This document shows positions 2,669 to 63,580 of a DNA stretch of 64,000 nucleotides, piece after piece (within the stretch, counting starts at the first letter, position 1; each line of letters opens with the position of its first letter). The position numbers and the translations under genes were made by a program. This stretch comes from a phage. The stretch is from the sequence record OZ413489.1. One strand, given 5' to 3'. Under the pieces are notes generated by a model. The model saw only the letters and a list, made by a program, of their open reading frames with translations. It had not been told where the DNA came from and searched no databases.

Positions 2669-3057
2669 TGAAAAATATTTGGGATATCGATATCTTTGAA
2701 GCCTCTAAGCTTGACGGTGCTGATGGAGTGATTATGGTGTCTGATGGCAAGGCAACACTAACTTCCGGAGATATCATCTATGCCTTGGACGAGCTGGCGC
2801 TTCTGAAATCTACCGGTAACACTTTGGAGGAGCGTCTTCAAGGATTCGCTTTCAAAGAAGGTACAAATACAGCCATGATGTGCACCACACGGACAGTTCA
2901 GGTTGGTAACGGTGTCTATATGATTATTGCTGTGTGTCCTAAATTCAGCAACGTCAACAAAGATGATGCTGACGCGGTCAACGATGTGGTTGTTCTCTTC
3001 GTGGGTGACGCTATGGCAGATCTGATGAATGCAGGAGAAGCAGCAAATGAAGACTGA
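2665..3057 (+). CDS. hypothetical protein
   Basis: 130-aa ORF, coupled start. Confidence 0.6.
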   Translation: MMKNIWDIDIFEASKLDGADGVIMVSDGKATLTSGDIIYALDELALLKSTGNTLEERLQGFAFKEGTNTAMMCTTRTVQVGNGVYMIIAVCPKFSNVNKDDADAVNDVVVLFVGDAMADLMNAGEAANED

Positions 3058-3349
3058 AAACATCACCCCAGCAGGGTTCTTAAAAGTATACCGTGAACTG
3101 CTATATACTACAGAGGACAGTGTTCTAGAGTATCCAGAATATCTTTTGCTGTATAAGTATCTGCAGGAGGCTGGTGAAAATCTGCCAGTTAGTGCAGAAG
3201 GTGGTCCAAACTGGATATACAGCGCATGGAGAAAGGTTGACATTCTCCCAGACCCAGGTAAAGATATGGTAGTTTGGCAGCTTATCAACAACATCGGGAT
3301 TCCAATCTTTGATGAAGCTGTTAAAATCTATTTTGAACTTGACGATTAA
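3047..3349 (+). CDS. hypothetical protein
   Basis: ATG 3047 with ggagaag RBS; in frame with track ORF 3029. Confidence 0.55.
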   Translation: MKTENITPAGFLKVYRELLYTTEDSVLEYPEYLLLYKYLQEAGENLPVSAEGGPNWIYSAWRKVDILPDPGKDMVVWQLINNIGIPIFDEAVKIYFELDD

Positions 3350-5936: not shown

Positions 5937-6353
5937 ATGACATTAGAAGATATCATTGTTAAACCTGAGAACTATGACCAATACAACCTGTCAACTCAAT
6001 CTGTAGACCTTGGATGCGCCACAGTTAGTGCGTGGCTGGTTAATGGAAAAGAGCTGGACAAGTGCTTAGAAGCTCACATGTCTGTTAACAAGTTTCTGGA
6101 TGAAAATACTCACTGGCTTGAGGGTGCTGGAGTATATGCTTCATGGTTGGAGAGCATGGGCTTTGACTATCAATCTGATGAAGGGTGGTGGAGCTATCTG
6201 GCTATCTGTCCAGAAACACTGCAATGCTTCATGAAATACTCTGAAGATCTTGAGTACCGAGCGGTGGTTGATAGTGCTATTGCCCGTTATAGCCGTAAAC
6301 CTTTTTCCCATGACATTAAAACTGTGGAAGAATTTGTTGAAGTTTTCTGTTGA
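5937..6353 (+). CDS. hypothetical protein
   Basis: 138-aa ORF. Confidence 0.6.
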   Translation: MTLEDIIVKPENYDQYNLSTQSVDLGCATVSAWLVNGKELDKCLEAHMSVNKFLDENTHWLEGAGVYASWLESMGFDYQSDEGWWSYLAICPETLQCFMKYSEDLEYRAVVDSAIARYSRKPFSHDIKTVEEFVEVFC

Positions 6354-6449: not shown

Positions 6450-6647
6450 ATGATTTATCGAATCCGTGTAAGAGAAGATGCACCAGGCTGTTACTTTGAC
6501 TGGCGTGGGTGGTGGTTTCTCCACCCGATGGATGGACTCACAGATAGAATGCTGGATGCTGCCCTTTATACAGATACCGACATAGAATATAATCTTTATC
6601 TGAAGGACGGTATAGATAACGGCCTATTTGAAGCAATTCCTGTGTAA
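6450..6647 (+). CDS. hypothetical protein
   Basis: 65-aa ORF. Confidence 0.5.
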   Translation: MIYRIRVREDAPGCYFDWRGWWFLHPMDGLTDRMLDAALYTDTDIEYNLYLKDGIDNGLFEAIPV

Positions 6648-17946: not shown

Positions 17947-18210
17947 ATGAAACGTCTTGATCAGCTCAAATTAGTTCAATATATGGCTTATCGTGTTCTT
18001 GAAGTCCAGAAAGGTAGCAAAAAAGAGGTTTGCGAGAAAGCTTATAAGATCTTCACTCGCAAAAAAGATGACTGGATGCTACGCCAGACTAAAAAGGCTG
18101 ACATCTTGGGGTACCTGGAAGAAGAGATCCGCCTTGAAGAGCAAGAAGAGATCCGCCGTAGTGAGGCAGATTATCAGGCAGCTTGGGAAAACTGGATGAG
18201 CAACAAATAA
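17947..18210 (+). CDS. hypothetical protein
   Basis: 87-aa ORF, RBS aagaggtaaa. Confidence 0.6.
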   Translation: MKRLDQLKLVQYMAYRVLEVQKGSKKEVCEKAYKIFTRKKDDWMLRQTKKADILGYLEEEIRLEEQEEIRRSEADYQAAWENWMSNK

Positions 18211-18228: not shown

Positions 18229-18256
18229 CAGGGGCTTAAAGCCCCTTTCTTTTTGT
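18229..18256 (+). terminator. intrinsic terminator closing the + strand block
   Basis: aggggc-ttaaa-gcccct followed by ttctttttg. Confidence 0.65.
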
Positions 18257-18859
18257 CTCCTCTTTTCCTACCACAAATGGCCCCGCCTGGCAAATGGAAT
18301 AATCAACAAGCCAGCAATTAACCCCACTGTACAAACATACATATAAAATAACTATTGCATAATTTTTCATTGTGTGGTAGCAGTGCCATTTTTACACGTT
18401 TTTCCTTCCAAAATTGCACGTAATGCAGCATTTGCACAAAATTTAACCTGATGCATATCTTCAATAGCTTGTCAACAACTAAAAATCTTTATAAGTCATA
18501 CACTTACATAACTACAAAAACGTTTTCTACGTGAAAAATCGAGTATAACTATAGCCGCCAGATCTCAGAATTTACGTACGCTCGCCATTCTATAGCCTGC
18601 TAAGCATTTATTCCAACCATAGAATAACGGAATAGTCAATACCTGCATAAAATAATTATTCGTGTAAACTGCATAACATAAATCGGCCCAGGTGTCAACA
18701 TTTTTCGTAAACAGTCTGGAATTGTCACGTTAGGTTACCATAAGCAGAGAAATCTTTAGTCGTCTAATGTTTACTGTACATTACTATACTGACTGGAATC
18801 ATTAGATGACTAAGAGAAAGATAAGAAATAATTAATAATGTAATTATTTTACCTGTAAC

Positions 18860-19125
18860 AATAAGGCAACTATGCAAACGAATGGCATGGCGCGACGGAG
18901 TCGCGACATAATATAAAAGCAGTAACCATCACCCCCGTGATAGTTTGTCTGCAAACTATTAATCAGATCATAGTTGCCTTGTATTTAGTTAATCATGACA
19001 TGACAAGCAAGGCAACTATAGATCTGCTAATAGTTGCCCTGCTTTTATATTATGTCATGCTAATTATAATCAGTGCGATTATTGTCATGTATAATTATTG
19101 TCATGCAAACGAATGGCATGGCTGA
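18860..19125. repeat. array of aaggcaactat motifs in both orientations plus duplicated gcaaacgaatggcatggc
   Basis: Copies near 18863, 18970 (inverted), 19009, 19031 (inverted variant); 18-mer at 18874 and 19106; cgcgac-ggag-tcgcg palindrome. Confidence 0.6.
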
Positions 19126-19132
19126 TTATCGG

Positions 19133-19230
19133 TGTGTAAACAGTCAATCATGTAAATGGTTAGCATGTGAACAATCAGGAATGTAAACAATCCAGTGTGT
19201 AAACTAATAGGTGTGTAAAAGTGTCATGTT
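19133..19230. repeat. iteron-like array of six tgtaaac-type direct repeats
   Basis: gtgtgtaaacag, atgtaaatgg, atgtgaacaa, aatgtaaacaa, gtgtgtaaact, gtgtgtaaaag at 10-20 bp spacing. Confidence 0.55.
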
Positions 19231-19364
19231 GTGTCAGTTAGGTCACATTATGTCAGACAAGTTTTTCTCCTCTTTGTCAAGTGCTGCATGAAAAATTTAC
19301 AAGCTTGTATGGTAGCATTTTTGCGGCCCTGTTTACATTCAGTAATGTATGTATAATCCTTGTT

Positions 19365-19527
19365 GTGTGGGCGTTTAGACGTCTAGACGGTTGGAAGTCC
19401 ACAGGTCAATATCTAATCTATCGGCTGCTAACTATATCCCACACATGTGTGGGCGTTTAGACGTCTAGACGGTTGGAAGTCCACAGGTCAATATCTAATC
19501 TATCGGCTGCTAACTATATCCCACACA
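19365..19527 (+). repeat. perfect tandem duplication of an 81-bp unit (82-bp period)
   Basis: Unit gtgtgggcg...tagacgtcta...cccacaca twice; 7-bp terminal inverted repeat gtgtggg/cccacac; tataat hexamer at 19351-19356. Confidence 0.8.
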
Positions 19528-19789
19528 AATAGTAAGAAATATGATTGTTATATGCGTAAACTGTAACTCATGTTATCAATCCCTGTATGGATCGCCAGTG
19601 GTGCGCATAATAGGTATTATGTTAAATTGCCCGTAATGATAACAGTTCTCACAATGATAGGTATTCTCATTCATCCACACAAAATAGGTTGCAAATGTTG
19701 TGCCACTGTGTGAACGGCCTGGCCTATTAATTTCTCTCACTGCCTCGATATTTGAGAATTGTTATAAGAATGAGAAGTATTCCCATTCC

Positions 19790-20130
19790 GTCCGCCTGGC
19801 AGCACTCCTGTAGGTCCTGCAAGGACTCTAGCTGAAAGCTAGACCCTTCGGGCCTCCCTGTAGGTCAGGTCAAAATCGTGGTAGAATTGGGCCTGTTCAG
19901 ATATTTCTGGCTGACTCTTCAGGTCTGTGTGGGAAAAGCCAACCTCTCCGGCGGGGCAGGGGGTCATGACGGGAAAATTGCAGGTCAATTAAAAAATTTA
20001 CGTGGTGTATGAAGCGCTCTTCAGGTAAGGCATGTATTATGGGATGAAACCCTCTTCAGGCAATGATATTTGTGGGTGTGATATTTGCTGGAAAGCCAGA
20101 TATGACGGGACTCCCGGCGGGGATGGGGTA
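19790..20130. repeat. GC-rich segment with recurring short motifs
   Basis: ctcttcagg x3 (plus one at 20465), ccggcgggg x2, cctgtaggtc x2, atgacggg x2. Confidence 0.55.
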
Positions 20131-60288: not shown

Positions 60289-60386
60289 AACGGATACTAT
60301 TAACTGTCCGTGATACGGACACTACTGTCCGTCACGCGGACACATCTGCCCGTAATACGGACACTAACTGTCCGTGATACGGACAC
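60289..60386 (+). promoter_or_regulatory. array of four palindromic operators (ctgtccgt-N3-acggacac)
   Basis: Copies at 60304-60322, 60325-60343, 60346-60364, 60368-60386; 21-22 bp centre-to-centre. Confidence 0.7.
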
Positions 60387-60529
60387 ATAAAGAATATAAC
60401 TAAAATAACTAAATAATAAAAAATAAAAGATCTAGTACTTATGGTACTAAGTACATATACTTAACTTATGTAGAATATACTAGATCCTAAGTACCATGTT
60501 TTAAATTTATTACTTACTATGGGCAGTGT

Positions 60530-62767: not shown

Positions 62768-62842
62768 GCCCTGTTAGCTTAGTGGATAAAGCAGCGGCCT
62801 TCTAAGCCGTTGACACTGGTTCGAGTCCAGTACGGGGTGCCA
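62768..62842 (+). tRNA. tRNA-Arg (anticodon UCU)
   Basis: Cloverleaf folded by hand; loop cttctaa; TTCGAGT T-loop; encoded CCA. Confidence 0.75.
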
Positions 62843-62846
62843 AATT

Positions 62847-62933
62847 GGGGAGTTATCCCGTAGAGGTAGCGGTGTAGACTGTAAATCTATTGTCATTGCG
62901 ACTCGGGTGGTTCGACTCCACCACTCCCCACCA
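62847..62933 (+). tRNA. tRNA-Tyr (anticodon GUA), long variable arm
   Basis: Perfect acceptor ggggagt/actcccc; loop ctgtaaa; encoded CCA. Confidence 0.75.
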
Positions 62934-63047
62934 AATTTATATTTTTAGATGCATAAATAATACAGATAATGGCATTGATATTTATCGTCGTTTATACTAG
63001 TCACTAACTGCTCGAAAATCAGTGTCATTATCAGTATAATTTATAAA

Positions 63048-63138
63048 GGAGGGTAGGGAGCAATGGTGCTCAAGCGGTCTTGAAAACCGTCCCGTTGAGG
63101 ATGACTCGATGATGGTTCGATTCCATTACTCTCCGCCA
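63048..63138 (+). tRNA. tRNA-Ser (anticodon UGA), long variable arm
   Basis: Anticodon arm gcggt-cttgaaa-accgt close to E. coli tRNA-Ser(UGA); encoded CCA. Confidence 0.7.
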
Positions 63139-63236
63139 CATTGTTGACCTTGTAATTAAGCGAAAGCCGGAAGCAGAACCGGATTATCAAATGTTACAGT
63201 CGTCATCGCCGACTAGCAACATGGTCAACATGCTGA

Positions 63237-63335
63237 GCTAGGTAAGCCCTTTGGCAAGGGCGAGGATTTTTAATCCTGAAAATAGACGAGGTAGTCGTTG
63301 AATACATAGGTGGTTCGATTCCATCACCTAGCACC
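63237..63335 (+). tRNA. tRNA-like gene with aberrant anticodon arm
   Basis: Acceptor gctaggt/acctagc, D-arm and T-arm fold; anticodon region is either a 5-nt loop or a 4-bp stem with loop tttttaa; 3' end is CC then T. Confidence 0.35.
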
Positions 63336-63340
63336 TTTTT

Positions 63341-63416
63341 GCTGATGTAGCACAATCGGTAGTGCAATTGATTTGTAATCAATAGGTTGTAGGTTCAAAT
63401 CCTGCCATCAGCACCA
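63341..63416 (+). tRNA. tRNA-Thr (anticodon UGU)
   Basis: Perfect acceptor gctgatg/catcagc; loop tttgtaa; encoded CCA. Confidence 0.8.
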
Positions 63417-63417
63417 A

Positions 63418-63492
63418 GGCCCTGTAGCTGGAAGGTTCAAGCAAGCGACTCATAATCGCCAGACGGTGGTTCAATTCCACCCAGGGCCACCA
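63418..63492 (+). tRNA. tRNA-Met (anticodon CAU; could be Ile-lysidine type)
   Basis: Perfect acceptor ggccctg/cagggcc; loop ctcataa; encoded CCA. Confidence 0.75.
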
Positions 63493-63503
63493 AATAGTAA
63501 ATA

Positions 63504-63580
63504 CTCCGCGTAGCTCAGCTTGGTAGAGCGCCTGATTTGGGATCAGGAGGTCGAGTGTTCGAATCACTTCGTGGAGACCA
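63504..63580 (+). tRNA. tRNA-Pro (anticodon UGG)
   Basis: Anticodon arm cctga-tttggga-tcagg; canonical D-arm; encoded CCA. Confidence 0.75.

Follow-up and report, generated by a model that had tools for sequence, protein, structure and literature searches.

Genomic Setting of the Repeat

The stretch of DNA analysed here (the window) comprises 64,000 nucleotides of the record OZ413489.1 and comes from an E. coli phage of the rV5-like genus Vequintavirus, as judged by the 120–132 phage records that match the region at 85–100% identity. Within it lies a zone of about 2.5 kb that holds no credible genes and separates two convergent gene blocks. The genes to the left are on the plus strand, the last of them ending near 18210 and followed by a terminator at 18230, while those to the right are on the minus strand. 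It is within this zone that an 82-bp unit occurs twice in tandem. The same zone was drawn as a "non-coding" box in the paper describing rV5, where circular permutation was assumed, and no transcriptome or functional study of the unit's region was found in the literature.

Several other features of the zone and its borders deserve mention. In many relatives, an 87-aa gene is closely followed by one of 139 aa (for example, at positions 1372–1791 of locus L005 and 2909–3328 of loci L025–L031), which in Murica was noted with a Rel homology domain. This 139-aa gene is missing from the window (approximately 18250–18700) and from the phages Alma and pangalan, and so constitutes a presence/absence polymorphism beside the non-coding zone. 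Further along, 18804–19060 forms a highly conserved non-coding block whose column identity reaches 100% at 18864–18883. This block contains nested inverted repeats, with perfect outer arms of 18 nt at 18905–18922 and 19039–19056 and perfect inner arms of 12 nt at 18970–18981 and 19008–19019, and its predicted folding is among the strongest in the zone. An exact 20-bp direct repeat, ATGCAAACGAATGGCATGGC, occurs at 18872 and again at 19103. As candidate roles, the block may serve as an origin or as a packaging signal, or it may be expressed as an RNA.

Elsewhere in the window, a full-length group I catalytic intron is found at 243–478 (Rfam RF00028, 64.7 bits), and a cluster of seven tRNA genes occupies 62768–63580. 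One of these tRNAs (63237–63335, about 97 nt) was assigned a four-base anticodon by ARAGORN and scores only 35.5 bits with Rfam; the gene may be aberrant, or an intron may interrupt it. An intergenic array at 60303–60388 comprises four tandem units of 21 bp, all with the palindrome GTCCGTNNNACGGAC, and is a candidate set of operator-like binding sites. As for the records matched by the region, some 17–19 entries labelled "Campylobacter phage" (MG0656xx series) are 93–97% identical to this E. coli phage region. Together with CP057073.1, they have the appearance of rV5-like phage genomes present through mislabelling or contamination.

An Exact Tandem Duplication of 82 bp

A single tandem array was found here by TRF, extending from 19364 to 19527 with a period of 82, 2.0 copies, 100% matches and a score of 328. 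A repeat search of the window likewise returned two head-to-tail copies, at 19364–19445 and 19446–19527, that are 100% identical. An earlier sequence-only reading had described a perfect duplication of an 81-bp unit; the identity of the copies and the 82-bp period hold, while the unit itself proves to be 82 bp and to start at 19364. The first copy is the equivalent of the single copy of relatives (88–100% identity to 32 related loci), and the second is an extra one, private to the OZ413489.1 phage. Chance origin is far exceeded by an exact repeat of twice 82 bp. Identity between the copies extends for 0 bases further on either side, an abrupt end that leaves only one way to delimit the duplicated segment and no microhomology.

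Each copy begins with TGTGTGGG and ends with CCCACACA, so that the inverted-repeat ends seen in the earlier reading are present, with arms that are longer than it had noted (8 bp). Where only one copy is present, the inverted repeat is in fact 9 bp long, T-TGTGTGGG and CCCACACA-A, and the end-points of the duplication fall one base inside it on both sides. Where the copies abut, the duplication has given rise to a perfect 16-bp palindrome, CCCACACA/TGTGTGGG, at 19438–19453, which can be read directly. An 8-bp inverted repeat would by itself be unremarkable, as a few such pairs fall within the 459-bp block that relatives have here. Inverted ends of 8 bp, on the other hand, occur in only 2.6e-5 of random segments of 40–200 bp taken from the window. 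The non-random feature is the coincidence of the duplication end-points with the inverted repeat.

Within each copy, a sequence search recovered the previously reported 10-bp palindrome TAGACGTCTA, at 19376–19385 in the first and at 19458–19467 in the second, and this motif shows no enrichment (3 matches at ≤1 mismatch versus 1.3 expected). A plus-strand TATAAT hexamer is indeed present upstream, at 19352–19357; it lies 6 nt before the repeat and not about 10 bp as first read, and it is not conserved as a promoter element. A resemblance between the sub-motif CAGGTCAATATC of the unit and CAGGTCAAAATC at 19866 was considered and set aside, being within chance by our own estimate.

The 8-mer of the arms, TGTGTGGG/CCCACACA, has a wider distribution. 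It occurs at 14 sites in the window (for example, at 1658, 9615, 14641, 17582, 19926, 21143, 24958, 32615, 59756 and 60624) versus 2.06 expected, and none of 100 shuffles gave a count as high. At both 14641 and 17582, the 8-mer comes immediately after a GGGGCA...TGCCCC hairpin, and a start codon follows about 20 nt downstream. This distribution suggests a putative recurrent intergenic motif with a regulatory or processing role.

The Unit Lies in a Block Homologous to the Terminal Repeat

A terminal repeat (DTR) is the sequence found at both ends of packaged phage DNA and once at each concatemer junction. Several have been defined in Vequintavirus. The terminal repeats of Gotham are 459 bp long, with one fixed packaging start (PMC7471380), and the terminal redundancies of EdH4 and HdK5 are 458 bp (PMC6563267). 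In the Gotham record, a repeat_region is annotated at bases 1–459, and the 82-bp unit lies inside it. This repeat aligns end to end with 19256–19445 plus 19446–19796 of the window at 94.6–94.7% identity, the sole interruption of the alignment being the extra 82 bp. A DTR-homologous block of 541 bp can thereby be placed at 19256–19796, on the strength of the Gotham homology and of the conserved island in which it lies. In an alignment of 19 genomes, that island spans 19244–19805, with a column identity of about 90–99%, between hypervariable flanks at 19144–19243 and 19806–19865.

The boundaries of the block are equally well kept. From GACAAG to CCGTCCGCC, it measures 458–461 bp in 31 of 31 relatives versus 541 bp in the window. 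Its left boundary reads ...TGTCA/GACAAG in all 31, and CCGTCCGCC is followed by TGGCAGC in every one of them save Gotham, where the record ends, and CM1, where a second repeat copy follows. Among the matches listed, the unit is found at bases 237–385 of six records, four of which hold the match twice; such a position implies that these records begin at the same base. In Shigella phage CM1 (MK962749.1; locus L014, 840–1885), a perfect 523-bp tandem repeat consists of the DTR plus 64 bp of its left flank, and its right end, ...CCGTCCGCC, matches the right boundary of the Gotham repeat. The CM1 doublet probably reflects a rotated record in which the two terminal repeats stand side by side, or else a longer DTR in that phage.

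Judged by this homology, the 82-bp unit belongs to the interior of the Vequintavirus DTR and is non-coding, and the physical ends of the OZ413489.1 phage would lie at the end positions of its relatives. The terminal repeat itself has already been published for relatives; what is new is the duplication, and it is an ordinary variant.

The sequences that flank the DTR are of a different character. On the left (19112–19255), short degenerate repeats, at first (G/A)TGTAAAC-like and then NNTGTGTCA-like, form a hypervariable array; their number and order vary among relatives, and the array always ends ...TGTCA at the DTR boundary. The right flank (19797–19880) starts with a near-invariant TGGCAGC(A/G)CTCC and continues into variable inserted modules, these being alternative segments of 40–50 bp between 10-bp direct repeats, CCTGTAGGTC or GGCAGCACTC. 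It is also the strongest-folding 82-nt window of the zone. No description of hypervariable arrays flanking the DTR was found in the literature on Vequintavirus.

Copy Number and Conservation in Relatives

The unit is present once in all 32 related loci except CM1, where two copies result from the duplicated terminal repeat. Sixty matches were listed out of 120 records, and in the 59 of these that are complete, the single-copy span is 148–150 bp without exception, the sixtieth being incomplete because it ends at the edge of its record. A second copy of the 82-bp unit is missing from 120 related phage records and from 13 further assemblies. A 70-mer centred on the junction has no match in 50,697 phage records, the exact junction has none in IMG/VR, and a metagenome collection yielded none even with a tolerant pattern. 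Further relatives (one from IMG/VR, three from metagenomes and 10 places from a protein look-up) are all single copy. Within these collections, the tandem doublet is private to the OZ413489.1 phage. The single copy of relatives, together with the identity of the two copies here, supports the recent duplication that had been proposed from the sequence. No relative closer than about 96–97% (over 15 kb) was found, so the duplication can be dated only as having acquired no substitution since.

Strong selection had been offered as the other explanation for the perfect identity of the copies, and this finds no backing, for the 82-bp unit is conserved no better than the remainder of the terminal repeat. 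It is kept throughout the genus, though as part of that repeat, so the lack of conservation that would have told against the earlier reading is not what is seen. Among the 32 loci, the left arm TGTGTGGG is kept in 30, while the right arm reads CCCACACA in 20 and CCCCCACA, CCACCACA, CCCGCACA or CCCCCCAC in the other 12. The 10-bp palindrome is perfect in 13 and imperfect in 19, most relatives having TAGACGTCTG, and the hexamer upstream is TATAAT in 20, TATAAC in eight, TATAAG in three and TACAAT in one.

The unclassified Vequintavirinae A5-4 and UPEC06 are syntenic and more distant. In these phages, the unit has no counterpart, and the only part of the zone that can be aligned to them is a 28-bp stretch at 19600–19627. 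This stretch lies outside the 82-bp unit, where conservation of the terminal repeat is highest. A motif, GCC/TGGCAGCA, also recurs in A5-4 where the right end of its DTR would be expected, and on the basis of this recurrence, it is a candidate for a conserved terminase cut-site context. In locus coordinates, these sequences fall at 6462–6489 and about 6691 of L023 and at 6188–6214 of L024.

The possibility that the unit encodes protein was also considered and rejected. By our own count, the 17 sites that vary are split 8/5/4 among the first, second and third codon positions in the only ORF, without third-position bias; magaca carries an insertion of 1 bp; and the majority of records leave this stretch unannotated. 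The "hypothetical proteins" that some records place over the unit are probably spurious.

Origin of the Duplication

The best explanation, and one that is somewhat favoured overall, is that a non-coding segment inside the terminal repeat was recently duplicated in tandem in this phage alone, probably with neutral effect. An exact tandem duplication of the 82-bp stretch would lengthen the DTR from 459 to 541 bp. Slippage requires short direct repeats at the end-points, and the lack of microhomology indicates that ordinary slippage between direct repeats was not the maker. The end-points are symmetric on the 8/9-bp inverted repeat, and an event guided by that repeat is therefore the most likely source. 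Conceivably, nascent or single-stranded DNA could have folded into a hairpin while the terminal repeat was being replicated or repaired; alternatively, the two arms could have been cut symmetrically and then rejoined. No fully satisfactory template-switch path to a direct duplication could be derived, and the mechanism is put forward as inference only. We know of no documented case in which a direct duplication arose at the ends of an inverted repeat.

In T7, the terminal repeat depends for its function on terminase cutting at the outer boundaries and on the two end copies being identical. By analogy, the extra copy in the OZ413489.1 phage would probably be neutral, as it would leave both the outer boundaries and the identity of the end copies unaltered. 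A constant length of 459 ± 1 bp in relatives nonetheless hints at some constraint on length or content, which counts against strict neutrality.

The most serious rival is that the second copy is absent from the phage DNA and is an artefact of assembly, consensus or amplification, such as an overlap between contig ends that survived rotation of the record without being trimmed, or a chimera that arose at the inverted repeat. None of about 130 relatives shares the duplication, and it is located in the terminal repeat, a place at which assemblies often break because coverage is doubled. The artefact is also made a serious rival by the CM1 record, which holds the whole terminal repeat twice in tandem and illustrates that artefacts of representation occur in this very region. 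Against this, 82 bp is an unusual k-mer overlap, the end-points of the duplication match neither boundary of the terminal repeat, and an assembler artefact would leave exact inverted-repeat end-points (2.6e-5 by chance) unaccounted for. The position of the end-points on the inverted repeat argues in particular against a plain assembler overlap. On balance, an artefact is unlikely, though by a good deal the readiest alternative to a genuine duplication.

Other Roles Considered for the Unit

A functional reading would make the unit a cis-acting module of the DTR bound by protein, with a second copy that is functional and may be selected. One putative binder is the small terminase subunit; another would be a protein of replication or end processing, with the arms or the GACGTC palindrome as the recognised sequence. 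In keeping with this, every Vequintavirus retains the unit, at a constant place within the terminal repeat, the length of the block is invariant (458–461 bp in 31 relatives), TGTGTGGG is over-represented in the window (14 versus 2.06 expected), and symmetric end-points would suit a nuclease that cuts both arms. The arms and the palindrome, however, are precisely the parts that vary, the right arm being altered in 12 of 32 loci and the palindrome imperfect in 19. Moreover, the unit is no more conserved than the rest of the repeat, the neighbouring genus has no homologue of it even though other parts are retained, and no relative has two copies. None of the tests supports the duplicated protein-binding site that the sequence-only reading had proposed, and such a role is quite improbable.

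A related and still more doubtful idea is that the arms are sites in a discrete cis-acting DTR module that a phage enzyme cuts or processes as hairpins when the ends are replicated or the DNA is packaged, the duplication being a footprint of symmetric processing. One arm would be cut in one copy of the genome and the other arm in a second copy, and the products would then be rejoined. If this were true, there would be a previously unrecognised processing site within the Vequintavirus terminal repeat. We know of no role for an internal inverted repeat in Vequintavirus.

A third proposal was that the unit is a gene for a small structured RNA, present in two tandem copies and transcribed from the TATAAT upstream. 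The plus-strand RNA fold of the unit (−26.1 kcal/mol, z = −3.2) is in the lowest 1.3% of the 82-nt windows of this stretch, and the hexamer does lie 6 nt upstream. Nevertheless, Rfam 15 gave no match at the unit even at E values up to 10; at gathering score, the window contains only tRNAs and one group I intron, and ARAGORN made no tRNA-like call at the unit. Covariation was tested on both the single-sequence minimum-energy structure and an RNAalifold consensus. Changes on both sides were seen in 0 of 28 base pairs among 15 distinct variants, and the covariation score equalled that of shuffle controls, with power limited by identities of 88–100%. Pair 5–78, in the outer stem, is broken in seven of the 15 and pair 29–67 in 10; across the 32 loci, the outer stem is disrupted in 12. 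The minimum-energy structures of relatives also differ when folded as single-stranded DNA, in which form hairpin folding of the unit is non-significant (z = −1.4 and −0.9).

The transcriptional setting is no more favourable to an RNA gene. The hexamer is mutated in 12 of 32 loci and has no −35 box, no σ70-like promoter was called at the unit, and neither a called terminator at the unit nor a T-run after it was found on either strand. In addition, two transcription units run towards each other here, and the unit lies beyond the terminators of both. Given the Rfam null, the lack of covariation, the broken pairs, the variable hexamer and the missing promoter, the structured-RNA reading is rejected as very unlikely, and with it the TATAAT-driven tandem RNA first suggested. 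Some structure-related role of the unit is possible, as its predicted fold is better than that of 98.7% of 82-nt windows.

Finally, a miniature inverted-repeat mobile element, with a second copy inserted beside the first, is the least probable reading and has largely been refuted already: its 8/9-bp terminal inverted repeats do have TG...CA ends (with the repeat imperfect in 12 of 32 relatives) and its abutted ends do resemble an IS-circle or tandem-dimer junction, but there is no target-site duplication or flanking direct repeat, each phage has one locus only, no copy occurs in 5,426 E. coli genomes, the sole match in a plasmid collection (CP057073.1, E. coli, 137.6 kb) looks like a mis-filed phage genome, no further TGTGTGGG...CCCACACA pair within 100 bp exists anywhere in the window, and no transposase was found nearby.

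Relation to Known Terminal Repeats and Significance

T7-type phages have a short terminal repeat flanked by arrays of short repeats (SRL/SRR), and a hairpin-intermediate model exists for the T7 terminal repeat. The arrangement described here is similar in that a gene-free repeat of hundreds of base pairs has fixed ends and variable, degenerate arrays on both sides. It differs from T7 in having no sequence similarity and in belonging to a phage of another family, a myovirus of about 137 kb. A relative within the Vequintavirinae, KPP-1, was called T7-type by PhageTerm.

The closest likeness is, of course, to the DTRs of Vequintavirus itself (459 bp in Gotham; 458 bp in EdH4 and HdK5). The block in the window is collinear with that of Gotham at about 95% identity, with the same boundaries and the same place between convergent gene blocks. 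It differs from these DTRs in being 82 bp longer, and its ends have been placed by homology only. As a duplication, it resembles the products of slippage in that the copies are exact and head-to-tail and the event is recent and confined to one lineage. It departs from them in that its end-points are the arms of an inverted repeat, without direct repeats. The modules of the right flank, unlike the 82-bp unit, are bracketed by 10-bp direct repeats.

Taken overall, the doublet is an ordinary polymorphism or an artefact in a known terminal repeat. It carries little weight for biology at large, and the fact that its end-points coincide exactly with an inverted repeat is of minor mechanistic interest. 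For annotators of rV5-like phages, a puzzling repeat is now placed in its proper context, the terminal repeat, with the accompanying warning about the probably spurious hypothetical proteins that some records annotate over the unit. If the duplication is real, the terminal repeat of these phages tolerates an increase of 18% in its length.
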